A stretch of DNA of 64,000 bases, from NCBI RefSeq assembly GCF_013315695.1, contig NZ_CP054353.1; one strand, written 5' to 3'. The notes beneath the pieces are model-generated. The model did not search any database and was not told the origin of the DNA. It saw only the letters and a list, made by a program, of their open reading frames with translations. This stretch comes from Escherichia coli. Its GTDB lineage: Bacteria > Pseudomonadota > Gammaproteobacteria > Enterobacterales > Enterobacteriaceae. A program made the position numbers and the translations under genes. Position 1 is the stretch's first letter. Each line of letters starts with the position of its first letter. This document shows, in pieces, positions 8,633-55,114 of this stretch.

Positions 8633-9169
8633 CCCTTTGCAGTGGGTTGTCGCTGCCTGACCTTTTTTGTTTTTTGCCCGGTCGGGTCAACGTTATGAGG
8701 TGGGGATGCCGTACTAATTAACATCAGTGTAACAGTGCGGATCCTCCATAAAATGCCCCTCGTGACCTACAATCTGTCAACAGAATGTGAAAACGTCAAT
8801 ACAGCCAACCGGGATTTACACCAACGGTGAGAATCCACAAACAAAGATTAAAAAAACTTCAAACAGCTATTTGCAGCAGAGAAATTTGTGCTACGCCAAC
8901 ACAACCAGAACAATCAGCTTAATATTTAGCAACATTTGGTGATTAAGTTTTATGCATTTAATGAAAAAATCTGAGGTAAAGGTGGATATCTGAGCGATTA
9001 ATACCATGAACGCTAAAACGCACAGCGGAAAATGCCAGCGCCAGCCATAAGTAACGCAAAAAAAGATTTAAGCAAATATAAAAAAAGACAATGGTTTCTG
9101 TCACAAATCCGTTAATGGATAGTGAGATATGGGGCGCAAATTTGGCAGGGAAATGTGTGGTGTGTAGAT

Positions 9170-9270
9170 CGGATAAGGCGGTCGCGCCGCATCCGACAAT
9201 GGGCCGGTACATTTGCCTGATGCGACGCTGGCGCGTCTTATCAGGCCTACGTCGAATCGAACCTCCCCGC
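9170..9270. repeat. REP/BIME-type palindromic repeats
   Basis: Inverted pair of REP-like sequences (cggataaggcggtcgcgccgcatccgac / gcctgatgcgacgctggcgcgtcttatcaggcctac). Confidence 0.7.
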
Positions 9271-21382: not shown

Positions 21383-21423
21383 AGGGTAGCCTCACTTTGT
21401 ACTGACCCCAGAAAGTTGGACAG

Positions 21424-22275
21424 TTAAACACGAGGCATATAGGTCTGATTCCGATATTCAATTGGAGTCAGACCTTTTAATTTCAGGCTAATTCTTCTGC
21501 TGTTGTAGTATTCAATATATTCCGTAACAGCATCCTTCAGCTCGCTTATATTACTGAACTCATCAAGATAAAAACACTCCGACTTTAAGGTTCCAAAGAA
21601 ACACTCCACCACAGCATTATCCAGACAATTGCCTTTTCTGGACATGCTTTGTTTAATACCATGTTCTTTAAGGATATTTTGATATCTTCTCATACGATAC
21701 TGCCATCCCTGGTCAGAGTGCAGAACAGGATGCTCGTGAGGATTAAGCTTTTTGAATGCCTGATCGAGCATATTCTCGACCATGTTCATCACTGGTCTTT
21801 CCGAAAGGCTGTAAGAAATAACTTCGTTGTTGAAGAGATCTATTACTGGAGACAAATACAGCTTGCGCCCATTGACTGCAAATTCAGTAACATCGGTAAC
21901 CCACTTCTCGTTTGGCCGCGTAGCCTTGAAATCTCTTTGGAGAACATTGGGGGCGGTTTGCCCTACCTCTCCTCTGTAAGAGCGGTATCGCTTGACCTTA
22001 ATCGCTGCCTTCAGTGAGAGGATTCCCATCAGGCGCTGAACAGCTTTATGGTTAATCTGTTTCCCTTCTCGATGAAGAGACAGCGTTACCCTACGGTATC
22101 CGTATCGGCCTCTATTCTCATGATAAATCTCACCAATACGCTTTTTAACGTCCGCATACTTGTCAGGCTTGCTGAGAGCCTTTAGATGGTAATAAAACGT
22201 ACTGCGCGGTATCTCCGCAGCCCTGAGAAGCTCATCAAGAGGATAAAACTGCCTTAGCTCGTTGAGTACTTTCAC
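21424..22275 (-). CDS. insK: IS150 OrfB (InsK), DDE transposase catalytic domain
   Basis: 283 aa rve-type integrase core; expected to be expressed as an OrfAB fusion by -1 frameshifting. Confidence 0.95.
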
Positions 22276-33088: not shown

Positions 33089-34268
33089 ATGTTTACTAAA
33101 CGTCACCGCATCACATTACTGTTCAATGCCAATAAAGCCTATGACCGGCAGGTAGTAGAAGGCGTAGGGGGAATATTTACAGGCGTCACAATCGGAATGG
33201 GATATTTTCATTGAAGAAGATTTCCGCGCCCGCATTGATAAAATCAAGGACTGGTTAGGAGATGGCGTCATTGCCGACTTCGACAACAAACAAATCGAGC
33301 AAGCGCTAGCTGATGTCGACGTCCCCATTGTTGGGGTTGGTGGCTCGTATCACCTTGCCGAAAGTTACCCACCCGTTCATTACATTGCCACCGATAACTA
33401 TGCGCTGGTTGAAAGCGCGTTTTTGCATTTAAAAGAGAAAGGCGTTAACCGCTTTGCTTTTTATGGTCTTCCGGAATCAAGCGGTAAACGTTGGGCCACT
33501 GAACGCGAATATGCATTTCGTCAGCTTGTCGCCGAAGAAAAGTATCGCGGAGTGGTTTATCAGGGATTAGAAACCGCGCCAGAGAACTGGCAACACGCGC
33601 AAAATCGGCTGGCAGACTGGCTACAAACGCTGCCACCGCAAACCGGGATTATTGCCGTTACTGACGCCCGGGCGCGGCATATTCTGCAAGTATGTGAACA
33701 TCTACACATTCCCGTACCGGAAAAATTATGCGTGATTGGCATCGATAACGAAGAACTGACCCGCTATCTGTCGCGTGTCGCCCTTTCTTCGGTCGCTCAG
33801 GGCGCGCGGCAAATGGGCTATCAGGCGGCAAAACTGTTGCATCGATTATTAGATAAAGAAGAAATGCCGCTACAGCGGATTTTGGTCCCACCAGTTCGCG
33901 TCATTGAACGGCGCTCAACAGATTACCGCTCGCTGACCGATCCCGCCGTTATTCAGGCCATGCATTACATTCGTAATCACGCCTGTAAAGGGATTAAAGT
34001 GGATCAGGTACTGGATGCGGTGGGCATATCACGCTCCAATCTTGAGAAGCGTTTTAAAGAAGAGGTGGGTGAAACCATCCATGCCATGATTCATGCCGAG
34101 AAGCTGGAGAAAGCGCGCAGTCTGCTGATTTCAACCACCTTGTCGATCAATGAGATATCGCAAATGTGCGGTTATCCATCGCTGCAATATTTCTACTCTG
34201 TTTTTAAAAAAGCATATGACACGACGCCAAAAGAGTATCGCGATGTAAATAGCGAGGTCATGTTGTAG
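33089..34268 (+). pseudogene. xylR: xylR (AraC-family xylose operon activator) with +1 frameshift in a G-run at 33167-33171
   Basis: ATG at 33089 reads MFTKRHRITLLFNANKAYDRQVVEGVG then a stop after 42 codons; the rest of XylR (ORF 33423..34268 plus upstream codons) is in the +1 frame. Confidence 0.75.
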
Positions 34269-34287
34269 CGATGATGAGAATTGTCGG

Positions 34288-34362
34288 CGTCGCATCAGGT
34301 AACTCAGTACAATCACCTGATGCGAGCAAAAGCCTTATCCGACCGACAAGTCGGATAAGGCT
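34288..34362. repeat. Pair of REP-like perfect palindromes between xylR and bax; likely transcription terminator/mRNA stabiliser
   Basis: cgcatcaggt-N13-cacctgatgcg and gccttatccgac-N6-gtcggataaggc. Confidence 0.65.
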
Positions 34363-34375
34363 CGAGGAAATGCAA

Positions 34376-35200
34376 TTACATATGTGCCGCGATTAACCGT
34401 TGGTTATCCTGGTACATTGCGAACAGGTAGTTGTTATAACTCTTCCCTTTGGTCGAGTAGCCCTTCAGCTTGTGAATCATCGCTGTGGCAGTCACTTCCT
34501 GATCCGCTTTACGCAGCTGTGCACGCGATTTACGGAACGAAGAGTAAGCCGGATGCGTATTCAGGTTAGTAACATAGGCGCTCACCGATTCTTTGACAGA
34601 ACTAAACTGTGAGTACCCTTTCACTTTACCCGGCGCATTGGTACAACGTCCTTTCATGCATTTCATGCCGAACAGGTTGTTGTTGTTGCGCGCCAGCTTC
34701 GACGTTCCCCAACCGCTTTCTGCTGCAGCCATCGTCGCCACCATACTGGTAGGGATAATGTCTACGCGTTCAAGCAAAGTATTCCACGGGATTTTTCGCG
34801 TATTACCAGACCACTTCACCTTGTAGCGTTTGGCGATGTCTTTCAGACGCGCACGCTCAGCAGGTGACCATTGGCCCTGATACTGTTTTGAAATCAGCCA
34901 GTTACGTTCCGCAGTAATGGCCGCATTTTGGCTGGTAATGTAAGGCATTACGGTCCGGAGAAACGCCTTTTTCCTTGGTGTTCCGGAAGGGTATTTTCGC
35001 AAATCAGGAAGTGAACTACTCTTTGCACTATTGCGAGAATACTCTTGTTTACTGCTTACCTGTTTATTACTAGCTTTAGTTAAGTGGGACTTTTGACTCG
35101 CTGTTGTTGTGTGCGTCTTCGCTAACACCTCACTCGAAAACACCAGAGTGAGTAACATAAGAATCATCGCCCCATATCGTCGTATGGGAGTCAAAATCAT
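34376..35200 (-). CDS. bax: Bax protein (putative glucosaminidase-domain protein)
   Basis: 274 aa with signal peptide; synteny. Confidence 0.9.
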   Translation of the reverse strand: MILTPIRRYGAMILMLLTLVFSSEVLAKTHTTTASQKSHLTKASNKQVSSKQEYSRNSAKSSSLPDLRKYPSGTPRKKAFLRTVMPYITSQNAAITAERNWLISKQYQGQWSPAERARLKDIAKRYKVKWSGNTRKIPWNTLLERVDIIPTSMVATMAAAESGWGTSKLARNNNNLFGMKCMKGRCTNAPGKVKGYSQFSSVKESVSAYVTNLNTHPAYSSFRKSRAQLRKADQEVTATAMIHKLKGYSTKGKSYNNYLFAMYQDNQRLIAAHM

Positions 35201-39594: not shown

Positions 39595-40443
39595 TTATGT
39601 GATCGCGCCCTGGTCGTCCCTGACAGTAAATCCCAGTTCATTAGAAATAGCCTGCGCGGTTTCACGCAGTGGTTTCAGGAGATTTTTCTCCCCCACCTGT
39701 TTCAGACGTGATGTCGAAAGCGAAATCGACACGGCGTACGGCACCCGCCCATGAATATCAAACACCGGAACAGCAATACAGGAGACGCCGAGTTCGTTTT
39801 CTTCTCTGTCCATCGCCGCTCCGCTTTCACGAATGTGCGCCAGTTCGTCGAACATCGCGGGCAGCTCGGTAATGGTATTGTGGGTTAACGGCTGGATCTC
39901 ATGCTGATGGCTTTCCCAGTATGACTTCACGTAGTCCGGGTGACCAAACGCCATGTAGATCTTGCCCATTGCGGAACAGTAGAGCGGCATATGCTGGCCA
40001 ATATAGGCACGGGTTCGCAGCATCCCGGTTGTGGGTTCCAGCTTATAAATCAAAATAGCGTGATCGTCTTCGCGGCTGGAGAAGTTAATAGTTTCACCAG
40101 TGGCGATGTTCAGTGCCTCAAGATGCGGAGCGGCGATATGAATGATATTCAGCGAAGACAGCGCCTTCTGCCCGACGGCAATAAATTTGGTGGTCAGGCG
40201 GTAACTCCCTGCGGCGGGCGCGGTGGTCACATAGCCGCAGGACTGTAATCCCTGCAATAAGCGATGGACGGTACTCTTATTTAAACCAGCCAGTTCCGAA
40301 AGATGCGCCAACGGACAACCGTTTGGATAGTTGCTCAAAATCTCAATCAGCATCAACCCGCGAAACAGACTCTGGCTTCCGGCTGGACGCTCTTTTTCCT
40401 GCGCCATCTCGTTCTCTTTTTTTCCCATCACTTCTTTCCCCAT
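39595..40443 (-). CDS. yiaJ: IclR-family transcriptional repressor YiaJ
   Basis: 282 aa, N-terminal HTH and IclR effector domain; divergent from yiaK. Confidence 0.9.
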   Translation of the reverse strand: MGKEVMGKKENEMAQEKERPAGSQSLFRGLMLIEILSNYPNGCPLAHLSELAGLNKSTVHRLLQGLQSCGYVTTAPAAGSYRLTTKFIAVGQKALSSLNIIHIAAPHLEALNIATGETINFSSREDDHAILIYKLEPTTGMLRTRAYIGQHMPLYCSAMGKIYMAFGHPDYVKSYWESHQHEIQPLTHNTITELPAMFDELAHIRESGAAMDREENELGVSCIAVPVFDIHGRVPYAVSISLSTSRLKQVGEKNLLKPLRETAQAISNELGFTVRDDQGAIT

Positions 40444-40519
40444 TTTGTCGCGTCCTGATGGTAGCGCAAAGTGTGCCGTAGTTCACGATCTCGACAGATA
40501 ATTTATAACCACTTGATTT

Positions 40520-40610
40520 TTAAGTTTTTTGAAATTCATCAATCAGATTGCTTTGTTAAAAAGTGATCGATATATTTGAAATCAAGTTTCGTATATTGAA
40601 ATTTTAAGCC
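40520..40610. promoter_or_regulatory. yiaJ-yiaK divergent control region with repeated ATAT(T)TGAAAT motifs (candidate YiaJ operator / promoter elements)
   Basis: TGAAAT at 40530, 40577 and 40597; the latter two lie within ATATTTGAAAT / ATATTGAAAT direct repeats 20 bp apart. Confidence 0.35.
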
Positions 40611-40643
40611 AAAAAAGCGATCAAAAAAACAAGGAAGCCTGGG

Positions 40644-41642
40644 ATGAAAGTGACATTTGAGCAGTTAAAAGCAGCCTTTAATCGGGTCTTAATTTCACGC
40701 GGCGTTGACAGCGAAACGGCTGACGCCTGTGCAGAGATGTTCGCCCGCACCACCGAATCCGGCGTTTATTCTCACGGCGTTAATCGTTTCCCTCGTTTCA
40801 TTCAACAACTGGAAAACGGCGATATCATTCCTGATGCCCAACCCAAACGTATAACCAGCCTCGGCGCAATTGAACAGTGGGACGCTCAGCGTTCGATCGG
40901 TAACCTGACAGCGAAAAAGATGATGGATCGCGCCATTGAACTGGCTGCCGATCACGGTATTGGTCTGGTGGCACTACGTAATGCCAACCACTGGATGCGC
41001 GGCGGCAGCTACGGCTGGCAGGCGGCGGAAAAAGGCTATATTGGCATTTGCTGGACCAACTCCATCGCCGTAATGCCGCCGTGGGGCGCAAAAGAGTGTC
41101 GCATCGGCACCAACCCGCTGATCGTCGCCATTCCTTCTACCCCAATCACCATGGTCGATATGTCGATGTCGATGTTCTCTTACGGCATGTTAGAAGTTAA
41201 CCGTCTGGCAGGCCGTCAGCTCCCGGTCGATGGTGGCTTTGATGATGAGGGCAATTTGACCAAAGAACCTGGCGTTATCGAGAAGAATCGCCGCATTTTG
41301 CCGATGGGCTACTGGAAAGGTTCTGGCATGTCGATTGTGCTGGATATGATCGCCACTCTCCTTTCCGACGGCGCATCGGTTGCCGAAGTCACCCAGGACA
41401 ACAGCGACGAATACGGCGTTTCGCAAATCTTTATCGCCATCGAAGTGGATAAATTGATCGACGGCCCCACCCGCGATGCCAAGCTGCAACGCATCATGGA
41501 TTACGTTACTACCGCTGAACGCGCTGACGAAAACCAGGCCATCCGCTTACCCGGCCACGAATTTACTACCCTGCTGGCCGAAAACCGCCGTAACGGCATC
41601 ACCGTTGATGACAGCGTGTGGGCCAAAATCCAGGCGTTATGA
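40644..41642 (+). CDS. yiaK: 2,3-diketo-L-gulonate reductase
   Basis: 332 aa Ldh_2 family oxidoreductase. Confidence 0.93.
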
Positions 41643-41650
41643 GGAGATAA

Positions 41651-42121
<471 letters not shown>

Positions 42122-42238
42122 TCGAATAATCGTCTACGCCAGAACGCCTGGGTAATGTTATTGCTCTAACTATATTAATAATTTAGGTTGCTGCACATGC
42201 AACTTGAATTATGACAGACATAGCCTCAAGGAATAGCT

Positions 42239-42712
42239 ATGAAAAAAATACTTGAAGCAATACTGGCGATTAATCTCGCCGTACTTTCCTGTATTGTGTT
42301 TATAAACATTATTTTAAGATATGGTTTTCAGACAAGCATTTTATCTGTAGATGAATTGTCACGTTATTTATTTGTCTGGTTAACATTTATTGGCGCGATT
42401 GTGGCTTTTATGGATAACGCCCACGTTCAGGTCACCTTTCTGGTGGAGAAACTCTCCTCCGCATGGCAGCGACGAGTCGCTCTGGTTACCCATTCCTTAA
42501 TCTTATTTATTTGTGGCGCACTGGCCTGGGGCGCAACGCTAAAAACAATTCAGGACTGGAGCGATTATTCACCGATCCTCGGTTTGCCCATCGGCCTGAT
42601 GTATGCCGCTTGTCTGCCCACCAGCCTCGTTATCGCATTCTTTGAACTGCGTCATTTATATCAACTCATCACGCGTAGCAATTCTCTAACGTCGCCACCG
42701 CAAGGAGCTTAA
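42239..42712 (+). CDS. yiaM: TRAP transporter small permease YiaM
   Basis: 157 aa, four TM segments. Confidence 0.9.
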
Positions 42713-42714
42713 TC

Positions 42715-43992
42715 ATGGCTGTGCTGATTTTTCTGGGCTGTCTGTTGGGTGGTATTGCTATCGGTTTGCCTATTGCCTGGGCACTGTTGTTGTGCGGGGC
42801 GGCGTTAATGTTCTGGCTGGGCATGTTTGATGTCCAGATCATGGCACAAACGCTGGTGAACGGAGCCGACAGCTTCTCCCTGCTGGCGATTCCGTTCTTT
42901 GTGCTGGCGGGTGAAATCATGAATGCGGGCGGCTTGTCAAAACGCATTGTTGACCTGCCGATGAAACTGGTGGGGCATAAACCAGGCGGGCTGGGCTACG
43001 TCGGCGTGCTGGCGGCTATGATTATGGCAAGCCTTTCTGGTTCTGCCGTTGCGGATACCGCCGCCGTTGCCGCGCTATTAGTGCCGATGATGCGCAGCGC
43101 TAACTACCCGGTCAACCGTGCTGCGGGGCTGATTGCCTCTGGCGGGATTATCGCGCCAATTATTCCCCCTTCCATTCCGTTTATTATCTTCGGCGTTTCC
43201 AGCGGATTATCCATCAGCAAGCTGTTTATGGCGGGTATTGCCCCAGGCATTATGATGGGCGCAACGCTGATGCTTACCTGGTGGTGGCAGGCCAGTCGCC
43301 TTAATTTACCCCGCCAGCAAAAAGCAACGATGCAGGAAATCTGGCACTCTTTTATCTCCGGTATCTGGGCGCTGTTTCTTCCAGTCATCATTATTGGCGG
43401 GTTTCGCTCCGGTCTGTTTACCCCTACCGAAGCCGGGGCCGTTGCTGCTTTCTATGCGCTGTTTGTCGCCACAGTTATTTACCGTGAAATGACCTTCGCC
43501 ACACTTTGGCATGTGCTCATTGGCGCAGCGAAAACGACCTCAGTGGTGATGTTTCTGGTGGCCTCGGCACAAGTTTCCGCCTGGCTGATCACCATTGCTG
43601 AACTGCCGATGATGGTTTCTGATTTACTGCAACCGCTGGTCGATTCACCGCGTCTGCTGTTTATCGTCATTATGGTGGCTATCCTGATTGTCGGCATGGT
43701 CATGGATTTAACGCCGACGGTATTAATTCTTACCCCGGTATTAATGCCTTTAGTTAAAGAGGCAGGAATCGATCCGATTTATTTCGGTGTCATGTTTATC
43801 ATTAACTGCTCAATCGGCTTAATTACACCGCCTATCGGTAATGTGCTTAACGTTATTTCAGGGGTGGCAAAACTCAAATTCGATGATGCAGTCAGAGGCG
43901 TTTTCCCTTACGTCCTGGTTTTATATTCATTATTAGTCGTATTTGTTTTTATTCCCGATCTCATCATCCTCCCTTTGAAATGGATTAATTAA
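42715..43992 (+). CDS. yiaN: TRAP transporter large permease YiaN
   Basis: 425 aa DctM-like permease. Confidence 0.93.
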   Translation: MAVLIFLGCLLGGIAIGLPIAWALLLCGAALMFWLGMFDVQIMAQTLVNGADSFSLLAIPFFVLAGEIMNAGGLSKRIVDLPMKLVGHKPGGLGYVGVLAAMIMASLSGSAVADTAAVAALLVPMMRSANYPVNRAAGLIASGGIIAPIIPPSIPFIIFGVSSGLSISKLFMAGIAPGIMMGATLMLTWWWQASRLNLPRQQKATMQEIWHSFISGIWALFLPVIIIGGFRSGLFTPTEAGAVAAFYALFVATVIYREMTFATLWHVLIGAAKTTSVVMFLVASAQVSAWLITIAELPMMVSDLLQPLVDSPRLLFIVIMVAILIVGMVMDLTPTVLILTPVLMPLVKEAGIDPIYFGVMFIINCSIGLITPPIGNVLNVISGVAKLKFDDAVRGVFPYVLVLYSLLVVFVFIPDLIILPLKWIN

Positions 43993-44004
43993 AAGGAAAA
44001 TATT

Positions 44005-44991
44005 ATGAAATTACGCTCTGTAACCTACGCATTATTCATTGCTGGCCTGGCTGCATTTAGTACATCTTCAATGGCGGCGCAATCTTTACGTTTCGGTTAT
44101 GAAACCTCACAAACCGACTCGCAACATATTGCGGCGAAAAAATTCAATGATTTATTGCAGGAGAGAACCAAAGGCGAGCTGAAATTAAAACTGTTCCCGG
44201 ACAGCACTCTCGGTAACGCGCAGGCGATGATCAGCGGCGTACGTGGCGGCACCATCGATATGGAAATGTCCGGCTCGAATAACTTTGCCGGGTTATCACC
44301 AGTGATGAACTTGCTTGATGTCCCTTTCCTGTTCCGCGATACCGCTCACGCGCATAAAACGCTCGACGGCAAAGTCGGTGATGATCTGAAAGCCTCACTT
44401 GAAGGTAAAGGACTAAAAGTACTGGCCTACTGGGAAAACGGCTGGCGCGATGTCACCAACTCGCGCGCACCGGTTAAAACCCCCGCCGACCTGAAAGGGC
44501 TGAAAATCCGCACCAACAATAGTCCGATGAATATCGCAGCATTCAAAGTCTTTGGCGCTAACCCGATCCCGATGCCGTTTGCCGAAGTCTATACCGGGCT
44601 GGAAACGCGCACTATCGACGCTCAGGAACACCCGATCAACGTCGTCTGGTCAGCAAAATTTTTCGAAGTACAGAAGTACCTTTCTCTGACGCACCACGCC
44701 TATTCGCCACTTTTGGTGGTGATCAACAAAGCGAAGTTTGATGGCTTAAGCCCGGAATTCCAGCAGGCGCTGATCTCATCTGCGCAGGAAGCGGGTAACT
44801 ACCAGCGCAAACTGGTTGCTGAAGATCAGCAAAAAATCATCGATGGCATGAAAGAAGCGGGCGTGGAAGTCATCACCGATCTCGACCGCAAAGCCTTTAG
44901 CGACGCGCTGGGTAATCAGGTTCGCGACATGTTTGTTAAAGATGTTCCGCAGGGTGCTGATCTGCTGAAAGCCGTGGATGAGGTGCAATAA
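44005..44991 (+). CDS. yiaO: TRAP transporter periplasmic solute-binding protein YiaO
   Basis: 328 aa with signal peptide, DctP family. Confidence 0.93.
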   Translation: MKLRSVTYALFIAGLAAFSTSSMAAQSLRFGYETSQTDSQHIAAKKFNDLLQERTKGELKLKLFPDSTLGNAQAMISGVRGGTIDMEMSGSNNFAGLSPVMNLLDVPFLFRDTAHAHKTLDGKVGDDLKASLEGKGLKVLAYWENGWRDVTNSRAPVKTPADLKGLKIRTNNSPMNIAAFKVFGANPIPMPFAEVYTGLETRTIDAQEHPINVVWSAKFFEVQKYLSLTHHAYSPLLVVINKAKFDGLSPEFQQALISSAQEAGNYQRKLVAEDQQKIIDGMKEAGVEVITDLDRKAFSDALGNQVRDMFVKDVPQGADLLKAVDEVQ

Positions 44992-44994
44992 ACC

Positions 44995-46491
44995 ATGACG
45001 CAATACTGGCTGGGGTTAGATTGTGGCGGTAGCTGGCTGAAAGCCGGGCTGTATGACCGCGAAGGCCGGGAGGCAAGCGTGCAGCGCCTGCCGCTGTGCG
45101 CATTAAGCCCGCAGCCAGGCTGGGCAGAGCGCGATATGGCAGAACTGTGGCAATGCTGCATGGCTGTCATTCGCACCCTGCTTACTCATTCTGGTGTCAG
45201 CGGGGAGCAAATAGTGGGTATCGGTATCTCCGCACAGGGAAAGGGCTTGTTTTTGCTGGATAAAAACGACAAGCCGCTCGGGAATGCTATTTTGTCCTCG
45301 GACCGCCGGGCGATGGAAATCGTTCGTCGCTGGCAGGAAGATGGCATCCCGGAAAAACTCTACCCGCTGGCCCGACAAACCTTGTGGACCGGGCATCCGG
45401 TGTCGCTGTTACGCTGGCTGAAAGAGCACGAACCAGAACGCTACGCGCAAATTGGCTGCGTGATGATGACGCACGACTACCTGCGCTGGTGTTTAACTGG
45501 CGTCAAAGGCTGTGAAGAGAGCAATATTTCTGAGTCCAATCTCTACAACATGAGTCTTGAGGAATATGACCCGTGCCTCACCGACTGGCTGGGGATCGCT
45601 GAAATCAACCACGCCCTGCCGCCTGTTGTCGGATCTGCCGAAATTTGCGGGGAAATCACCGCTCAGACAGCCGCACTGACCGGTCTGAAAGCGGGCACCC
45701 CCGTTGTCGGCGGCCTGTTTGATGTGGTTTCCACCGCACTCTGTGCCGGGATCGAAGACGAATTTACCCTCAATGCGGTGATGGGCACCTGGGCGGTGAC
45801 CAGCGGCATAACCCGTGGTTTACGTGACGGTGAAGCGCATCCGTATGTCTATGGTCGCTACGTTAACGATGGTCAATTTATCGTTCACGAAGCCAGCCCC
45901 ACCTCTTCCGGCAACCTCGAATGGTTTACCGCACAGTGGGGAGAAATCTCGTTTGATGAGATTAACCAGGCCGTTGCCAGCTTGCCGAAGGCCGGGGGCG
46001 ATCTCTTTTTCCTGCCGTTCCTGTACGGCAGCAACGCCGGATTGGAGATGACCAGCGGTTTCTACGGGATGCAGGCCATTCATACCCGCGCACACCTGTT
46101 GCAGGCCATTTATGAAGGGGTGGTATTCAGCCATATGACCCATCTCAACCGGATGCGCGAACGTTTTACTGATGTGCACACCCTGCGCGTCACTGGCGGC
46201 CCGGCGCATTCCGATGTCTGGATGCAAATGCTGGCGGACGTCAGCGGGCTGCGTATCGAACTGCCGCAGGTGGAAGAAACCGGCTGCTTTGGTGCGGCAC
46301 TTGCCGCCCGCGTCGGCACCGGAGTTTATCGCGATTTCAGCGAAGCCCAACGTGACTTACAGCACCCGGTACGCACCCTGCTGCCGGATATGACCGCACA
46401 TCAGCTTTACCAACAAAAATACCAACGCTATCAGCATCTCATTGCCGCACTTCAGGGCTTTCACGCCCGCATCAAGGAGCACACATTATGA
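44995..46491 (+). CDS. lyxK: L-xylulose/3-keto-L-gulonate kinase
   Basis: 498 aa FGGY-family carbohydrate kinase. Confidence 0.93.
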   Translation: MTQYWLGLDCGGSWLKAGLYDREGREASVQRLPLCALSPQPGWAERDMAELWQCCMAVIRTLLTHSGVSGEQIVGIGISAQGKGLFLLDKNDKPLGNAILSSDRRAMEIVRRWQEDGIPEKLYPLARQTLWTGHPVSLLRWLKEHEPERYAQIGCVMMTHDYLRWCLTGVKGCEESNISESNLYNMSLEEYDPCLTDWLGIAEINHALPPVVGSAEICGEITAQTAALTGLKAGTPVVGGLFDVVSTALCAGIEDEFTLNAVMGTWAVTSGITRGLRDGEAHPYVYGRYVNDGQFIVHEASPTSSGNLEWFTAQWGEISFDEINQAVASLPKAGGDLFFLPFLYGSNAGLEMTSGFYGMQAIHTRAHLLQAIYEGVVFSHMTHLNRMRERFTDVHTLRVTGGPAHSDVWMQMLADVSGLRIELPQVEETGCFGAALAARVGTGVYRDFSEAQRDLQHPVRTLLPDMTAHQLYQQKYQRYQHLIAALQGFHARIKEHTL

Positions 46492-47150
46492 GCCGACCAC
46501 TTCTGCAACTGGCCCTCGACCACTCATCACTTGAAGACGCACAGCGCGACGTGATGCTGTTAAAAGGCAGCGTCGATATCGTCGAAGCGGGCACCATTCT
46601 CTGTTTAAACGAAGGGCTTGGCGCGGTGAAAGCCTTGCGCGAACAGTGCCCGGATAAAATCATCGTTGCTGACTGGAAGGTCGCCGACGCGGGTGAAACG
46701 CTCGCACAACAGGCGTTTGGCGCGGGTGCCAACTGGATGACCATCATCTGCGCTGCGCCGCTCGCGACGGTGGAAAAAGGCCACGCCATGGCGCAACGCT
46801 GCGGTGGTGAAATTCAGATAGAGCTGTTCGGTAACTGGACGCTGGACGACGCCCGCGACTGGCATCGTATTGGCGTGCGGCAGGCCATTTATCATCGTGG
46901 TCGTGATGCACAGGCCAGCGGGCAACAGTGGGGCGAAGCCGATCTGGCACGCATGAAGGCACTTTCCGATATCGGCCTTGAGCTTTCCATTACCGGCGGG
47001 ATTACCCCTGCTGACCTGCCGCTGTTTAAAGATATCCGCGTGAAAGCCTTTATTGCCGGGCGGGCGCTGGCAGGCGCAGCAAATCCGGCGCAGGTGGCTG
47101 GCGATTTCCATGCACAAATTGATGCCATCTGGGGAGGTGCGCGTGCGTAA
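46488..47150 (+). CDS. sgbH: 3-keto-L-gulonate-6-phosphate decarboxylase
   Basis: 220 aa, OMP decarboxylase-like. Confidence 0.93.
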
Positions 47151-48003
47151 TCATCCGTTAGGGATTTATGAAAAAGCGCTGGCGAAAGATCTCTCCTGGC
47201 CGGAGCGGCTGGTGCTGGCAAAAAGCTGTGGCTTTGATTTTGTCGAAATGTCGGTGGATGAAACCGACGAACGGCTCTCACGTCTTGACTGGAGCGCCGC
47301 ACAACGTGCTTCGCTGGTCACTGCGATGATCGAAACGGGTGTTGCCATTCCGTCAATGTGCCTGTCTGCCCATCGTCGTTTTCCCTTTGGCAGCCGGGAC
47401 GAGGCAGTGCGCGAACGGGCGCGGGAAATCATGAGTAAAGCGATTCGCCTGGCGCGCGATCTCGGCATTCGCACCATCCAGCTGGCAGGTTATGACGTCT
47501 ATTACGAAGACCACGACGAAGGCACCCAACAACGTTTTGCTGAAGGGCTGGCGTGGGCAGTCGAACAGGCGGCGGCATCACAAGTCATGCTGGCGGTGGA
47601 GATTATGGATACCGCGTTTATGAACTCCATCAGCAAATGGAAAAAATGGGACGAGATGCTCGCCTCGCCGTGGTTCACCGTCTACCCGGACGTCGGCAAC
47701 CTCAGCGCCTGGGGCAATGATGTTCCCGCCGAACTGAAACTGGGCATTGACCGTATCGCCGCGATCCACCTGAAAGACACCCTGCCAGTCACCGGGCAAA
47801 GCCCCGGACAGTTCCGTGATGTGCCGTTTGGCGAAGGCTGCGTCGATTTCGTTGGCATCTTCAAAACGCTGCATGAACTGAACTATCGCGGATCATTTCT
47901 GATTGAGATGTGGACCGAAAAAGCCAAAGAGCCGGTGCTGGAGATTATTCAGGCGCGGCGCTGGATTGAAGCGCGTATGCAGGAGGCCGGATTTATATGT
48001 TAG
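47143..48003 (+). CDS. sgbU: L-xylulose-5-phosphate 3-epimerase
   Basis: ORF 47053..48003; GTG start at 47143 ([15 protein letters not shown]...) gives 286 aa; overlaps the sgbH stop. Confidence 0.85.
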
Positions 48004-48692
48004 AGCAACTAAAAGCCGACGTGCTGGCGGCGAATCTGGCGCTTCCCGTTCATCATCTGGTGACGTTCACCTGGGGCAATGTCAGCGCGGTAGACGAAAC
48101 GCGGCAATGGATGGTAATCAAACCTTCCGGCGTCGAGTACAACGTGATGACCGCCGACGATATGGTAGTGGTTGAGATAGCCACCGGTAAGGTGGTGGAA
48201 GGCAGAAAAAAACCCTCGTCCGACACGCCAACGCATCTGGCGCTTTACCGTCGCTATGCCGAAATTGGCGGTATTGTGCATACCCACTCGCGCCACGCCA
48301 CCATCTGGTCGCAGGCCGGGCTGGATCTCCCCGCCTGGGGCACCACGCACGCTGATTACTTCTATGGTGCCATCCCCTGCACGCGACAGATGACCGCAGA
48401 GGAGATCAACGGCGAGTATGAATACCAGACCGGCGAAGTGATCATTAAAACCTTCGAAGAACGTGGGTTGAACCCGGCACAAATCCCGGCTGTACTGGTG
48501 CATTCTCACGGCCCGTTCGCCTGGGGAAAAAACGCCGCCGATGCGGTGCATAACGCCGTGGTGCTGGAAGAGTGCGCCTATATGGGCCTGTTCTCGCACC
48601 AGCTTGCGCCGCAGCTCCCTGCGATGCAAAACGAACTGCTGGATAAGCACTACCTGCGTAAACATGGGACCAATGCCTATTACGGGCAGTAA
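47997..48692 (+). CDS. sgbE: L-ribulose-5-phosphate 4-epimerase
   Basis: 231 aa class II aldolase/adducin-fold epimerase. Confidence 0.93.
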
Positions 48693-48696
48693 TCCC

Positions 48697-48720
48697 TCAC
48701 GCCGGGGCTTCATCGCCCCG
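48697..48720. terminator. Hairpin between convergent sgbE and the AraC-family gene
   Basis: gccgggg-cttcatcg-ccccggc stem-loop in the 31-bp gap between the two stop codons. Confidence 0.5.
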
Positions 48721-48723
48721 GCA

Positions 48724-49539
48724 CTACGAATTGATATGTTCCTTGCTGTAACGCCGCTTCCACGCTGCTGGCGTTAAACCAGTGTGTTTGCGAAAAATCT
48801 GCCGGAAATAGCCAACGTCATTAAACCCGCACAACGCCGCCACTTCAGTGAGCGATCGCGCTTCGCTAATTAACAGCTTTTCGGCTTCGCGCACTCGCTG
48901 GCGATGAATTGCTTCTGTTAACGTCAGATGAAACACCCGCCGATAGACGCGCCCAAGATAATCGGCATTGCAGTACAGCTCGCGGGCTAAAAGCGCCGTG
49001 GAAAGCGGGCGGTGATATTGCGTGCGAATCAGTTTCTGTGCTTTCCAGGCAAGGGTGGTGCCTGCACCATCGGCCTGTTCATCAAGACGCGCGTCACGGG
49101 TGAGCTGCTGCAAAATCAGCAGCACAATAAACTCCAGCGCCGGAGTGCGTTGATGCTTTTCCTGTTCGCTTAAGAACTGGCGAAACAAGGCCACCAGCAC
49201 CTGCGGATCGGCAACCTTAGTTTGTTGCGGCACGCTAAGATGAGTGAGCCAGCGCGGATCGTTGTCCGGCGCTTTAACCTCAAAATGCAGCCAGTAAAAT
49301 TTGAGATCGGCGGGAAAATCCTCCACCCCAACATGCTGTCGGTTCGGCCAGAGTAATAAACTCTCTCCCGCATCGACCAGAAATATCCGCTCTTCTTCCT
49401 GAATCGCTAATCGACCTTTTTCGACAAAGATAATTTCCCATGACTCCAGCCGCCTTGCCGGATGCCTCCCTACGCCACGGGAAATAAATAATCCACCATT
49501 TTGCACTTTAATCGGTAACGTCATGGATAATTCGAGCAT
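48724..49539 (-). CDS. AraC/XylS-family transcriptional regulator (N-terminal cupin-type sensing domain plus C-terminal HTH); accessory relative to K-12
   Basis: 271 aa; C-terminal AraC HTH signature (..TLTEVAALCGFNDVGYFRQIFRKHTGLTPAAWKRR); divergent from the transporter gene. Confidence 0.85.
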   Translation of the reverse strand: MLELSMTLPIKVQNGGLFISRGVGRHPARRLESWEIIFVEKGRLAIQEEERIFLVDAGESLLLWPNRQHVGVEDFPADLKFYWLHFEVKAPDNDPRWLTHLSVPQQTKVADPQVLVALFRQFLSEQEKHQRTPALEFIVLLILQQLTRDARLDEQADGAGTTLAWKAQKLIRTQYHRPLSTALLARELYCNADYLGRVYRRVFHLTLTEAIHRQRVREAEKLLISEARSLTEVAALCGFNDVGYFRQIFRKHTGLTPAAWKRRYSKEHINS

Positions 49540-49764
49540 TGATATGTAATTTCCCGCTTATTCATTAATGATTAAACACATTACCTTTTGATTATTAATC
49601 AAAAACATTAATTTCACCTGATCCAATTCACACTTTTAAATTCAGGTCGGAATCGTCACCTTTTTTTACTCTTTTCTCGCCTTGTTGATATTCCCGTTCA
49701 CGGCAGAATTAATCATGTCATTGCAATAAAACTAAAAATTGCTCCCTATTCACGAGGAATATCT

Positions 49765-51165
49765 ATGACCTCTACACCGATTACTACCGCTGATATCGCT
49801 AAAGGTAAAATTGACGATGCGTTATCTGTACGGGAAAAAATAGGCTACGGCCTGGGTGACGCAGGCGGCACCGTAATAACTTGCCTGATCATGAACTTTC
49901 TCACCTTTTTCTACACCGACGTTTTTGGCTTAACTCCGGCGCTGGTCGGCACGCTGTTTATTGCACTGCGCGTGTTTGATGCCATCTCCGACCCGGTGAT
50001 GGGCGTCATTGCCGACCGGACGCAAAGTCGCTGGGGGCGCTTTCGTCCGTGGCAGTTATGGATTGCCATTCCCATCGGCATTATCGGCATCCTGACGTTC
50101 ACCGTGCCAGATGCCAGCATGGGAGTAAAAATCGCCTGGGCGTTCGGTACTTACCTGCTCCTTTCAGTCGGTTATACCGCCATCAACGTACCGTACTGCG
50201 CGCTGATCAACACCATGACCACCCGCCACAATGAAGTGATCTCCTGCCAGTCCTGGCGATTCGTTCTCTGCGGCGTAGCGGGATTTCTGGTTTCGGTAGG
50301 CTTACCGTGGATGGTAGATCTCTTCGGGCAGGGTAATGCCGCGCGCGGCTATCAACTGGGCGTCGGCGTATTGTGCGCCATTGCCGTGGTGATGTTCCTG
50401 TGCTGTTTCTTCTGGGTTCGTGAACGGGTGCCGCTCTCCACAATGGGGAAATTTACCCTGCGCGAACATCTTGCCGGGCTGCGGAACAACGACCAACTGC
50501 TGCTGATGCTGGTCATGTCTTTCCTGCTGATTAACGTCTTTAATATTCGCGGCGGTGGGTATATGTACTTCATTACCTACGTCTTACAAGGCAGTACGGG
50601 CTACACGTCGCTGTTCTTCACCATGGTCACCTTCGCCTCCATTATCGGCTCGGTGATTGTCAGCCCATTAACGCGGCGTTTCGATACCGTCAAAATTTAT
50701 TACTACACCAACCTGCTCCTCGCTTCACTGGCGGTGTTGATGTGGTTCCTGCCCTCCGGCCCGGCTTATCAAACGCTGTGGCTGGCGGTGATCCTCGGTA
50801 ATGGCGTGATTCTTGGCTTCACATTGCCACTGCACTTCTCATTGATGGCCTTTGCCGATGACTACGGCGAGTGGAAAACCCGCGTACGTTCTTCCGGCAT
50901 GAACTTCGCCTTCAATCTGTTTTTCATCAAGCTGGCCTGGGCCTCCAGCGCCGGGATCATCAGCCTGCTGTTTATTTTTGTCGCCTACCAGCCAGGCGTG
51001 GAAAACCAGACCACCAGTTCGCTTGGCGGGATCGCGGCGATGGAAACATTGCTGCCTGCGCTGTTCCACCTGCTGCTGGCGATGGCGATCCGCTTTTGCA
51101 AACTCAATAACCCTATGATGTCACGCATTGCTAGCGACCTGCGTCAGCGTCATGTACAGCCTTAA
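49765..51165 (+). CDS. Glycoside-pentoside-hexuronide (GPH) family cation:sugar symporter; accessory
   Basis: 466 aa, 12 TM, MelB/YicJ-like N-terminal motif GYGLGDAGG and DxxxD...R pattern. Confidence 0.85.
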
Positions 51166-51175
51166 GGAGCACAAG

Positions 51176-53155
51176 ATGAACATTTCGGAAGTCGATCTGC
51201 ATAAACTGACGGTCAGCGATCCGTTCCTCGGTCAGTACCAACAACTGGTCCGCGATGTGGTGATTCCTTATCAGTGGGACGCCTTGAACGATCGTATCCC
51301 AGAAGCGGAACCCAGCCATGCGATTGAAAACTTTCGCATTGCCGCAGGACTGCAAGACGGTGAATTTTACGGGATGGTGTTTCAGGACAGCGACGTCGCC
51401 AAATGGCTGGAAGCGGTAGCCTGGTCGCTGTGCCAGAAGCCGGACGCCGAACTGGAAAAAACCGCCGACGAGGTGATTGAACTGATCGCTTCCGCCCAGT
51501 GCGAAGATGGCTATCTCAATACTTACTTTACGGTAAAAGCGCCCGAAGAACGCTGGAGCAATCTGGCGGAGTGTCATGAACTTTACTGCGCCGGTCATCT
51601 GATTGAAGCCGGAGTCGCCTTCTTCCAGGCTACGGGCAAGCGGCGCTTGCTGGAAGTAGTTTGCCGTCTGACCGATCATATCGACAGCGTATTTGGTCCA
51701 GATGAAAGTAAGTTACACGGTTATCCTGGTCACCCGGAAATTGAACTGGCACTAATGCGCCTGTATGAAGTGACCGAAGAGCCGCGCTACCTGGCGTTGA
51801 CGAACTATTTTGTCGAACAGCGTGGTGCGCAACCGCACTATTACGACCAGGAATATGAAAAGCGCGGGCAGACCTCGCACTGGCACACCTACGGCCCGGC
51901 GTGGATGGTGAAAGATAAAGCCTACAGCCAGGCGCATTTGCCCATCGCACAGCAACAAACCGCCATCGGACATGCAGTACGCTTTGTATATCTGATGACT
52001 GGCGTCGCACATCTGGCGCGTTTAAGTCACGATGAAAGCAAGCGTCAGGATTGCCTGCGGCTGTGGAACAATATGGCCCAGCGTCAGTTATATATTACCG
52101 GCGGCATTGGCTCACAAAGCAGCGGCGAAGCGTTCAGCAGCGATTACGATCTGCCGAATGACACGGTTTACGCCGAAAGCTGTGCTTCCATCGGCCTGAT
52201 GATGTTCGCCCGGCGAATGCTGGAAATGGAAGGCGACAGTCAATATGCCGATGTGATGGAGCGCGCACTGTACAACACCGTGCTCGGCGGCATGGCGCTG
52301 GATGGCAAACATTTCTTCTATGTGAATCCGCTGGAAGTACATCCAAAATCGCTGAAATTCAACCATATCTACGATCACGTTAAGCCGATCCGCCAGCGTT
52401 GGTTTGGTTGCGCTTGTTGTCCGCCAAATATCGCCCGCGTGCTAACCTCGATTGGTCATTATCTCTACACGCCGCGTGAAGATGCGTTGTATATCAACAT
52501 CTACGCAGGAAACAGCATGGAAGTGCCGGTAGAAAATGGCACGTTGCGTCTGCGGGTTAGCGGAAACTATCCGTGGCAGGAACAGGTGACAATTGCGGTT
52601 GAATCGCCCCAGCCGGTGCGTCATACGCTGGCTTTACGTCTGCCGGACTGGTGCACACAGCCGCAGATCATATTGAATGGGGAAGAGGTCGAGCAGGATA
52701 TTCGTAAAGGGTATTTGCACATTACCCGCGAATGGCAGGAGGGCGACACGCTGAATCTAACTTTGCCAATGCCAGTACGTCGCGTTTACGGTAACCCGCT
52801 GGTGCGTCACGTCGCCGGAAAAGTGGCGATTCAGCGCGGCCCGCTGGTTTATTGCCTGGAACAGGCCGACAACGGCGAGTCACTGCATAACCTGTGGCTG
52901 CCCGCCGATGCGCCATTTACGACATTTGAAGGTAATGGATTGTTCCGCCATAAGATCTTAATCCAGGCACCGGGTTACCGGTATGAACAGAGCAATCCAG
53001 AGCAGCAACCGCTGTGGCATTACGACAGTGCGCCAGCCAAACGCCAGCCGCAAACTCTGACGTTTATCCCGTGGTTTAGCTGGGCTAACCGGGGTGAAGG
53101 CGAAATGCGGATCTGGGTGAATGAGGAAAAGCATTGCCATCCGGAGGTTGGATAA
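51176..53155 (+). CDS. Glycoside hydrolase family 127 (DUF1680) protein, putative beta-L-arabinofuranosidase; accessory
   Basis: 659 aa from MNISEV (AAGGAG ribosome-binding site 8 bp upstream); contains ESC...WFGCACCPPN, consistent with the Glu/Cys3 zinc site and catalytic Cys of GH127 enzymes; 10 bp downstream of the symporter gene. Confidence 0.8.
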   Translation: MNISEVDLHKLTVSDPFLGQYQQLVRDVVIPYQWDALNDRIPEAEPSHAIENFRIAAGLQDGEFYGMVFQDSDVAKWLEAVAWSLCQKPDAELEKTADEVIELIASAQCEDGYLNTYFTVKAPEERWSNLAECHELYCAGHLIEAGVAFFQATGKRRLLEVVCRLTDHIDSVFGPDESKLHGYPGHPEIELALMRLYEVTEEPRYLALTNYFVEQRGAQPHYYDQEYEKRGQTSHWHTYGPAWMVKDKAYSQAHLPIAQQQTAIGHAVRFVYLMTGVAHLARLSHDESKRQDCLRLWNNMAQRQLYITGGIGSQSSGEAFSSDYDLPNDTVYAESCASIGLMMFARRMLEMEGDSQYADVMERALYNTVLGGMALDGKHFFYVNPLEVHPKSLKFNHIYDHVKPIRQRWFGCACCPPNIARVLTSIGHYLYTPREDALYINIYAGNSMEVPVENGTLRLRVSGNYPWQEQVTIAVESPQPVRHTLALRLPDWCTQPQIILNGEEVEQDIRKGYLHITREWQEGDTLNLTLPMPVRRVYGNPLVRHVAGKVAIQRGPLVYCLEQADNGESLHNLWLPADAPFTTFEGNGLFRHKILIQAPGYRYEQSNPEQQPLWHYDSAPAKRQPQTLTFIPWFSWANRGEGEMRIWVNEEKHCHPEVG

Positions 53156-53159
53156 GGCG

Positions 53160-53270
53160 CTCGCGCCGCATCCAACGTAGGGTGCACATTGCCTGATGCG
53201 ACGCTTAACACGTCTTATCAGGCCTACAAGTCGGTGCGAGAGCGTAGGCCAGCCGCACCGACATCCACCG
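53160..53270. repeat. REP-type palindromic elements between the GH127 gene and yiaT
   Basis: gcgccgcatccaacgtaggg... / gcctgatgcgacgcttaacacgtcttatcaggcctac... REP-like units. Confidence 0.7.
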
Positions 53271-53275
53271 GTGAA

Positions 53276-54016
53276 TTAAAAACGCCAGCTCACGCCGGTG
53301 ACAAAGGTAAAACTCTCATTACGATCAACCATCGGGCTGTCGGTAATCTCTTCCGGCAGCTCGCTGTATCCGGCGCTCGCCATCAATACGACGTGCTCTC
53401 CTATCGGGTATTTTGCCGTCAGGCTGACATAGGGCACCCAGGCATCCTGCGCGGAATAACTTGCCAGACCGCTACGACGGGACTCACTCTCTGAAATGCC
53501 ATAGTAATAGTCACTGAAATTCTCGTCATAATAGAGAACGCCCAGCGCAGGTGTCAGCGACAGGCGACCTATCTGCATTTTGTGGAATACCGATAGCTCC
53601 CCCACCCAGCCGTTGCTGTTATCCAGAACGTCCGCAGCCGCAGAGGCTTTCACGGTTCCCCAACGCTCGTGGTGATACCAGGCAACCCCCGCCATAGCCG
53701 TACTATCACGCTTATCAAGCTGTTGCATGGCATAATCGTCATTATCGGCAGGGTCAAATTCCAGCGGCATCCAGGATGCGGTCAGGCTAAGTTCATTTTT
53801 TTCACTTTGCGACAGAATAAAACCTAACGTGGTCTGACGAACATAAAAAGTATCACCTTCATAACTAATCAGCGGAATTGCCTTTGTATTTTCATTATAA
53901 CCGCGATAAGGCGATTCATTATAAGCCGCACCAGCACCAATGGATAATTCAGAAGCAGTTGCACTTGCCATAAAAGGCAACGCAAATAACACCACAATAT
54001 TGCGGTTAATTAACAT
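53276..54016 (-). CDS. yiaT: MipA/OmpV-family outer membrane protein YiaT
   Basis: 246 aa with signal peptide and C-terminal aromatic residue. Confidence 0.9.
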   Translation of the reverse strand: MLINRNIVVLFALPFMASATASELSIGAGAAYNESPYRGYNENTKAIPLISYEGDTFYVRQTTLGFILSQSEKNELSLTASWMPLEFDPADNDDYAMQQLDKRDSTAMAGVAWYHHERWGTVKASAAADVLDNSNGWVGELSVFHKMQIGRLSLTPALGVLYYDENFSDYYYGISESESRRSGLASYSAQDAWVPYVSLTAKYPIGEHVVLMASAGYSELPEEITDSPMVDRNESFTFVTGVSWRF

Positions 54017-54139
54017 GTCCGGTATTCCATTTTAAAATAAGATAAAAAAGAGTCGGCATAGTAATGCTTACAATTTCTCCGGTGCAAGATTCATATTTAT
54101 ATAGTAATATATAAAATTATATATAATTGGACTGTTGCG

Positions 54140-55114
54140 ATGACAAAATTACAACTTAAGTACCGGGAGTTAAAAATTATCTCGGTAATCGCTGCCAGTG
54201 AAAATATCAGCCATGCCGCGACTGTACTTGGCATCGCACAGGCCAACGTCAGCAAATATCTTGCTGATTTTGAATCAAAAGTGGGTTTAAAAGTCTTTGA
54301 CCGAACCACCCGACAGCTGATGCTCACACCTTTTGGCACCGTGCTGTTACCGTACATCAACGACATGCTGGACAGAAACGAGCAGCTTAATAATTTTATT
54401 GCAGATTATAAGCATGAGAAACGTGGTCGGGTCACTATCTATGCACCAACCGGCATAATTACCTATTTATCCAAACATGTAATCGATAAAATTAAAGATA
54501 TCGGTGATATCACCTTATCGCTAAAAACCTGCAATCTTGAGCGTAATGCCTTTTATGAAGGCGTCGAATTTCCCGATGATTGTGATGTTTTAATCAGCTA
54601 CGCCCAACCAAAAGATGAATCGCTGGTTGCCAGTTTTATTACCCAATATGCCGTAACCGCTTATGCCAGCCAGCGCTATCTTGGGAAACATCCCATTAGC
54701 CGTCCTGACGAACTCGAACATCACTCCTGTATTTTGATCGACTCGATGATGATCGACGACGCGAATATCTGGCGCTTCAACGTCGCCGGGAGTAAAGAGG
54801 TGCGGGATTATCGCGTGAAGGGAAATTACGTTTGCGACAACACGCAATCTGCGCTGGAGCTGGCACGAAATCACCTGGGGATTGTGTTTGCGCCAGACAA
54901 AAGTGTGCAGAGCGACCTGCAAGACGGCACGCTGGTGCCCTGCTTTCAGCACCCGTATGAATGGTGGCTGGATCTGGTGGCTATCTTCCGTAAACGGGAA
55001 TACCAGCCCTGGCGGGTCCAGTATGTGCTGGATGAAATGCTGCGTGAAATTCGCCACCAGCTTGCTCAGTCGCAGCAACTGCGGCCTGAACAAGCGGCGG
55101 AAAGCGAAGATTAA
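54140..55114 (+). CDS. yiaU: LysR-family transcriptional regulator YiaU
   Basis: 324 aa, N-terminal HTH and LysR substrate domain. Confidence 0.9.

Follow-up and report, generated by a model that had tools for sequence, protein, structure and literature searches.

Do the REP palindromes that lie beside variable DNA in Escherichia coli mark the breakpoints at which that DNA is gained or lost? The question is raised by the window, a stretch of 64,000 nucleotides of the E. coli chromosome with the order dpp–xyl–yia–aldB–selAB. In it a sequence-only reading had placed REP-type palindromes at the distal edge of a GH127 module, beside the xylR–bax junction and downstream of aldB next to a Fic insertion, and had tied all of them to insertion or deletion breakpoints. 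Strain AF3 is 100% identical to the window over 50000-60000, and the gene order of 30001-64000 matches the AF3 record, which supplies the gene coordinates (Table 1). Collinearity of the whole window with AF3 was rejected: the first half of AF3 is about 5.5 kb longer, and in place of the single IS1 of the window AF3 has a pair of IS1 copies that enclose xyl genes. Base-level comparison was made with six diverse E. coli genomes, and other alleles may exist; population searches covered 5426 complete genomes, and outgroups were examined too. Frequencies of allele classes are estimates from evenly spaced result rows. The indel list was drawn from chained alignments of the 64 kb to the six genomes and contains every indel of at least 12 bp. 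REP units were located by scanning for the consensus GCCKGATGCG..CTTATCMGGCCTAC with at most 5 mismatches.

The consensus scan returned eight hits in the window, seven intergenic and one probably spurious in aldB, against 0-1 hits per shuffle (20 shuffles). The aldB hit (57255-57290) was rejected as an eighth REP; it carries 5 mismatches and has a counterpart aldB hit in strain 98232 and in E. albertii, and we treated it as a chance match. REPs are paired in opposite orientation at 9164-9250 (17-nt spacer), 53143-53227 (14 nt) and 57007-57088 (12 nt), the alternation with short linkers that defines BIMEs; a long linker is found in the allele of strain S8. The pair at 57007-57088 combines y, a short linker and z1 as BIME-1 does, the linker classes being assigned by eye. 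The S8-type allele likewise resembles BIME-1 in having a long linker with a AATTCAATATATTG motif, which we take to be the IHF-site region. RNA folding of all four clusters is far more stable than that of shuffles, with z from -3.8 to -7.4. Two clusters also score above the gathering score (59.5) of Rfam naRNA4 (RF02564), at 9167-9247 (70.5 bits) and 53146-53224 (68.3 bits). This model presumably derives from the REP325 BIME. We rejected the matches as evidence of a specific small RNA, since they follow from shared REP sequence and hairpins, and no nucleoid role is implied for the window copies. As a family, REPs number hundreds per genome. Under a 28-nt word requirement, the number of places per genome matched by REP-containing queries has a median of 2-3 and a maximum of 8, and K-12, S8 and other strains have additional REP copies in other spacers. 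The GTGCGCTTTGTTTAT motif is found again next to the y REP in the dppB/dppA and avtA/ysaA BIMEs of K-12, which makes it part of the repeated unit.

In most respects the units match the E. coli type: imperfect palindromes of 33-37 nt with a GCCKGATGCG head and a CTTATCMGGCCTAC foot, alternating in pairs 12-17 nt apart, extragenic and at gene 3′ ends. A GTAG/CTAC tetranucleotide is conserved at the foot of the REP hairpin (PMC3333891). It is present in the units at 9164 (as ATCTAC), 9215, 53191, 57007 and 57053. It is missing from the window's 53143-53176, which has CCTCC where S8 and the O157 strain have CCTAC, and from the xylR–bax unit (CCGAC). Judged by their feet, these two are degenerate members of the family. 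Unlike typical REPs, the xylR–bax elements are rearranged REP halves without the canonical foot, and 53143-53176, with its degenerate foot, is the one unit that is not wholly in a spacer: it reaches 13 nt into the GH127 coding sequence and supplies the stop codon TAA at 53153-53155 (C-terminus ...EKHCHPEVG*). The palindromes of the window are confirmed as genuine E. coli REP/BIME elements. The sequence-only reading was right on this point at all three places, with coordinates good to a few bases: at 53160-53270, where pattern scan, naRNA4 match and folding agree, at 57000-57100, where two units lie, and at 34288-34362, where its wording of "REP-like" is apt because the canonical GGCCTAC foot is absent.

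Table 1. Genes, REP units and other elements of the window discussed in the text
Feature	Positions	Strand	Basis or remark
REP unit, inverted, y-like	9164-9197	-	Pattern scan, Rfam naRNA4; left half of BIME between dppA and tRNA-Pro gene; unreported by the sequence-only reading
REP unit, z1 type	9215-9250	+	Pattern scan
xylR	33090-34268	+	AF3 record
REP-like palindromes, xylR/bax convergent spacer	34290-34362	+	Two strong palindromes, fold z = -7.4
11-bp-stem palindrome made of two REP 5′ arms	34290-34325		xylR/bax spacer
Degenerate REP, foot GACCGAC in place of GGCCTAC	34315-34347	+	Pattern scan
Perfect 13-bp-stem palindrome made of REP 3′ arms	34331-34362		xylR/bax spacer
bax	34376-35200	-	AF3 record
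araD	47997-48692	+	AF3 record
AraC-family gene	48724-49539	-	AF3 record
MFS transporter	49765-51165	+	AF3 record
GH127 hydrolase	51176-53155	+	AF3 record
REP unit, inverted, y-like, overlapping GH127 end	53143-53176	-	Pattern scan, Rfam naRNA4
REP unit, z1 type	53191-53227	+	Pattern scan
Non-canonical palindrome GTCGGTGCG..CGCACCGAC, internal GTAGGCC	53230-53262	+	3′ end of yiaT
yiaT-yiaW	53276-56576		AF3 record
hicB 3′ remnant	56873-56967	-	About 85-88% identical to intact gene of hicAB strains
GTGCGCTTTGTTTAT motif	56992-57006	+	Left of y REP
REP unit, y type	57007-57040	+	Pattern scan; left half of BIME 30 nt downstream of aldB
Short linker, 12 nt	57041-57052		After y REP
REP unit, inverted z1 type	57053-57088	-	Pattern scan
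aldB	57120-58658	-	AF3 record
Fic gene	58766-60061	-	AF3 record
yiaY	60191-61342	-	AF3 record

Whether breakpoints fall on these units was addressed by aligning the junctions across genomes, the check that had been proposed with the original reading; it was run on the six genomes and extended by the searches of 5426. The breakpoints of one yiaTUVW deletion lie in REPs; most others do not. The xylR–bax spacer, which had been counted among the junctions of strain-specific DNA, belongs to the conserved core: in a search with 33900-34700, xylR and bax are adjacent in 5421 of the 5426 complete genomes. Its only variation is a REP-containing difference in length, with two alleles. The longer, by about 88 bp, is the K-12 form and makes up about one third of sampled rows; the other is that of the window. 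Where the window has 27 nt, K-12 carries an extra y REP, a bona fide one, together with an inverted z1 unit that has decayed. The spacer thus shows polymorphism internal to the REPs and not a strain-specific gene junction.

The supposed tie between the Fic region and the REPs downstream of aldB also fails. Genomes without Fic align up to 58771 and resume at about 60113-60139, which places the ends of the insert. Between the insert and the nearest REPs (57007-57088) lie 1.7 kb that include aldB, and the right side of the insert carries a duplicated non-REP palindrome, TATCTCAAAAA..TTTTGAGATA. The Fic-bearing junctions are common to 1572 genomes, and a REP was found at neither end in any of these. 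We note that one Fic-less genome (NZ_CP070098.1) has an IS200C copy in its aldB–yiaY spacer, the one with the non-REP palindrome, which is the site of Fic in other strains.

The GH127 module had been viewed as an insert edged by REPs. In Citrobacter werkmanii and Citrobacter sp. FP75 the order is selB-yiaY-aldB-yiaW-V-U-T-GH127-MFS-AraC, as in the window without Fic, and in FP75 araD comes next after AraC. The same gene order in Citrobacter argues that both the GH127 module and yiaTUVW are ancestral. The K-12 state, estimated from sampled rows at about 44% of genomes, is thus to judge from gene order a loss and not an ancestral absence. Two deletions separate K-12 from the window. The first (4022 bp, 48827 to 52850) has both ends inside coding sequence; the second (210 bp, 53038-53249) is flanked by CCAGCC(GCA) microhomologies and takes away both REPs together with the stop codon of GH127. 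What remains is the 102-nt 3′ end of the AraC gene and a 189-nt internal piece of GH127. The right end of the 210-bp deletion (53248-53258) is contained in the non-canonical palindrome at 53230-53262. At the proximal edge of the module, in the araD/AraC spacer (48693-48723), no REP was found. With an ancestral module and a 4022-bp deletion that ends in genes, the description as a REP-edged insert does not hold.

Several further features of this module were noted. The annotated length of GH127 varies between strains (1965, 1971 and 1980 nt), and the S8 copy is frameshifted; the Citrobacter protein stops 9 residues earlier, right after WVNE. Citrobacter sp. FP75 has a REP-like unit at the GH127–yiaT junction. 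The yiaW–aldB spacer of Citrobacter werkmanii contains GTAAGCTCCTGGGGATTC, which we take to resemble the ERIC/IRU repeat core; if so, a different repeat family would stand where E. coli has a BIME.

The O157 strain lacks yiaJ′-araD, from 39735 to 48712, with an end in the araD terminator hairpin. The ends of this deletion and of the GH127 loss in K-12 fall in coding sequence or in a terminator hairpin and share 0-11 bp of microhomology, and of the K-12 and O157 deletion ends compared at base level none is in a REP. In DS566-1, other B2 strains and E. albertii, araD and aldB are only 46 bp apart and the spacer is identical; in the DS566-1-like E. coli and in E. albertii it includes the hairpin GCCCGGCAATACACGCCGGGC. 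E. albertii and DS566-1-type strains both carry Fic beside aldB. The identical spacer together with Fic points to a shared ancestral polymorphism or to exchange between E. coli and E. albertii. In the yiaM-araD segment (42228-53200) S8 and DS566-1 share just 88-92% identity with the window, compared with about 97% in other parts, and these two strains have an extra DUF4862 gene between yiaL and yiaM. By its divergence this segment is apparently a deeply divergent or imported operon allele.

The proposed association is thus lost for xylR–bax, GH127 and Fic, but it is borne out for yiaTUVW, a module that had not been named. The clusters 53143-53227 and 57007-57088 flank these genes. A single composite BIME stands in place of the 3.85-kb yiaTUVW segment in 567 genomes, and both ends of the replacement lie in REPs; the population searches place the left end within 53190-53229 and the right end exactly at 57053, the outer base of a REP. 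The junction in S8 consists of the GH127 end, a REP orthologous to 53143-53176, the same 14-nt spacer, a y REP, a 35-nt long linker and an inverted z1 REP orthologous to 57053-57088, followed by aldB. Among the 567 genomes it is 99.5-100% identical, as would be expected of one event passed on by descent. The S8-type y REP differs from 57007-57040 at 3 positions, and the long linker was found in no yiaW-bearing genome in the search of the 5426 complete genomes. Simple recombination between REP 53191 and REP 57007 was rejected as the source of the scar, because the y REP and linker are unique to the S8 class. With both ends in REPs the scar may have a REP–REP origin, yet its y REP and linker correspond to neither of the parental units seen in yiaW-bearing genomes.

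Alternative alleles at the same place involve hicAB. In other strains a hicAB cassette has one end inside REP 57053-57088, at about 57060. The PRO_A-type allele without yiaTUVW joins 53237, which is 10 nt past the REP ending at 53227 and within the palindrome 53230-53262, to about 56873. The 98232-type allele is the same with an added 60-bp loss of the first REP. Both types carry hicAB between a conserved hairpin and aldB, and one also has a type I restriction gene. About 3380 genomes keep the hicB remnant of about 95 nt, as do the window and K-12, and 506 genomes have an intact hicAB there. The remnant contains a decayed hairpin, GCCCGG..CCGGGC; in E. albertii this hairpin is the neighbour of aldB, at a place where Citrobacter has a similar one. 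On the strand opposite to 56873-56967, a 144-nt 'hypothetical protein' is annotated in RefSeq. In the window and K-12 the position of hicAB is taken by the y REP together with the short linker and the flanking GTGCGCTTTGTTTAT. We found no support for a cassette that moves between BIME sites, as hicAB matches a median of one place per genome and two at most.

Over the whole 64 kb, small and large events differ in their relation to REPs. Five of the six small indels (12-300 bp) in the six-genome comparison involve a REP or BIME; the six are the dppB/dppA BIME, the avtA/ysaA BIME, the xylR/bax REP, the 210-bp deletion of K-12, the 60-bp deletion of 98232 and a 12-bp indel in the hicB remnant. The dppB/dppA BIME is found in K-12, S8 and DS566-1 and the avtA/ysaA BIME in K-12, DS566-1 and the O157 strain; both are missing from the window, in the case of dppB/dppA as the presence or absence of a BIME-1. 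In PRO_A-1534 and 98232, an IS3-family element of 1.43 kb, which the 98232 annotation assigns to the IS1397 family, is inserted in the loop of REP 9215-9250 at 9229-9232 with a TGGC target duplication, the junctions reading GACGCTGGC, IS, TGGCGCGTC; the window has no such insertion. Gene-scale breakpoints outside REPs are those of K-12 (48827/52850), O157 (39735/48712), DS566-1 (48691/57119) and Fic (58771/60113-60139). Further gene-scale events without a REP are the ldr copy number, the lpf operon, the DUF4862 gene, IS150, IS1 with its 4.9-kb xyl deletion, and ISEc45. Of the 15 gene-scale breakpoints not due to IS elements, four are at most 10 nt from a BIME; BIMEs extended by this margin account for 5.6% of the 7522 intergenic bases (P = 0.008 in a binomial test, a nominal value, since all four lie at two adjacent BIMEs that form one hotspot and the alleles are inherited by clade). 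The enrichment of breakpoints in BIMEs is accordingly no more than indicative.

The mobile and repeated elements of the first half were recorded as well. At 28487-29255 a single IS1 replaces about 4.9 kb that is present in all six genomes (3′ yiaB, xylB, xylA, xylF and 5′ xylG), and at 29822-31268 ISEc45 (IS110 family) interrupts what is left of xylG. The near-identical AF3 has two IS1 copies with those xyl genes between them, and the window thus looks like the product of an IS1–IS1 deletion. On this gene content the window strain should be unable to use xylose. Three tandem units of ldr toxin and rdlD antitoxin RNA lie at 1-1612 (Rfam 220, 703, 1186), with 1 to 4 copies in the six strains. 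IS150 at 21399-22841 adjoins the hokA/sok locus (Rfam sok 22764-22919); three of the genomes compared lack it, the junction having 7 bp in common, and the K-12 copy is in the opposite orientation.

We consider it likely that these are ordinary REP pairs of 3′ spacers, found near variable DNA through the sharing of spacers and the instability of BIMEs. The REPs, paired as BIMEs, sit in spacers at the 3′ ends of transcription units, and REPs and tolerated cassette boundaries would both be confined to the same few spacers between transcription units; given this confinement, their co-location with variable DNA is expected. BIMEs are themselves shown to be unstable, by presence and absence, by varying internal make-up and by IS1397-type insertion in the REP loop. 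At one place two BIMEs bound a clade-specific deletion, that of yiaTUVW, with a composite BIME in its place, and REP–REP recombination, template switching at hairpins or a REP-associated transposase may have produced it. From the comparison of gene orders, the gene-scale differences here are mostly losses of ancestral genes that mostly end outside REPs.

The sequence-only reading implies a stronger role, in which REPs directly cause the variation of modules through recombination between REPs or through cleavage and joining, so that breakpoints should generally lie at REPs. The S8-type deletion with both its ends in REPs, the hicAB end inside 57053-57088, the PRO_A-type end close to a REP and the nominal enrichment all speak for it, as do published cases of REP–REP recombination cited in PMC1525189. 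However, 11 of the 15 gene-scale breakpoints are not at REPs. The losses of GH127 in K-12 and of yiaJ′-araD in O157, with their coding or terminator ends and short microhomology, and the REP-free Fic ends of 1572 genomes do not fit, and xylR–bax has REP-like palindromes without gene-scale variation in 5421 of 5426 genomes. As a general rule, REPs as cause are largely refuted by the mapped breakpoints, and we regard this reading as unlikely. Pure positional coincidence, in which REPs are uninvolved and merely occupy the 3′ spacers where cassette boundaries must fall, agrees with the placing of all clusters in 3′ spacers, the indifference of most large events to REPs, the origin of the statistical signal in one hotspot and the same gene order without REPs at these junctions in Citrobacter werkmanii, but is quite unlikely given an IS1397-type insertion exactly in a REP loop in two strains, small indels that are nearly all gain, loss or remodelling of a REP or BIME, two deletion ends in units of about 35 nt (improbable by chance, the right one being the outer base of a REP in 567 genomes) and the published genome-wide enrichment of BIMEs in variable loops (PMC1187871).

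We think it very unlikely that the BIMEs flanking yiaTUVW serve as joinable ends in a REP-directed process, whether by a REP-associated transposase or by copying from another BIME-1 anchored on the resident REP. Such joining would explain the S8-type scar, with a y REP, long linker and z1 BIME in place of 3.85 kb, and the replacement of hicAB by a y REP and linker beside aldB; BIMEs would then be active agents of gene-cassette loss and not passive markers.

The preferred reading, of ordinary REP pairs in shared and unstable spacers, places the window among known cases. Chiapello et al. (2005) associated 100 variable loops of K-12 with BIMEs (PMC1187871), and Bachellier et al. (1997), as cited there, reported that BIME-1, with one y and one z1 and a single copy per locus, is present or absent between isolates. 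The window resembles those loops in that its small variable segments are or contain BIMEs, at dppB/dppA, avtA/ysaA, xylR/bax and the flanks of yiaTUVW; it differs in that the published loops are mostly small loops of the BIME itself, whereas here a 3.85-kb gene segment lies between two BIMEs. Tobes and Pareja (2006) described REPs as targets of IS elements and as points of recombination in the spacers of convergent genes, and restated the association of loops with BIMEs (PMC1525189). The element in the z1 REP loop of two strains, with its 4-bp duplication, is like the REP-targeting IS1397, IS621 and ISKpn1 (PMC1525189); the window is unlike these cases, its IS150, IS1 and ISEc45 not being in REPs. 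Ton-Hoang et al. (2012) found that REP-associated transposase cleaves BIME-type substrates at inverted REPs and in linkers, that BIME numbers vary among strains, and that hicAB replaces the REPtron and its BIMEs in some strains (PMC3333891). The alternation of hicAB with a y REP beside aldB recalls these TnpA-REP/RAYT REPtrons; in contrast, the window has no tnpA-REP gene, and the hicAB cassette has here a single location in each genome, apart from a few genomes with a second match. The title of a 2026 preprint (10.64898/2026.03.23.713779) describes REPs as local 3′UTR regulators.

The association of REPs and BIMEs with variable DNA is already known (Bachellier 1997; Chiapello 2005; Tobes & Pareja 2006), and the window is an instance of it. 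The finding has little import beyond annotation: one well-studied region confirms the published instability of BIMEs and shows BIMEs marking some variable spots. It also corrects an over-reading, in that most gene-content differences here are, as far as gene order tells, lineage-specific deletions of ancestral genes with ends not at REPs. Annotation should treat the GH127 module as an ancestral one that K-12 has lost and not as inserted DNA; the short ORFs of K-12 in the araD–yiaT interval and downstream of yiaW are remnants of AraC, GH127 and hicB.
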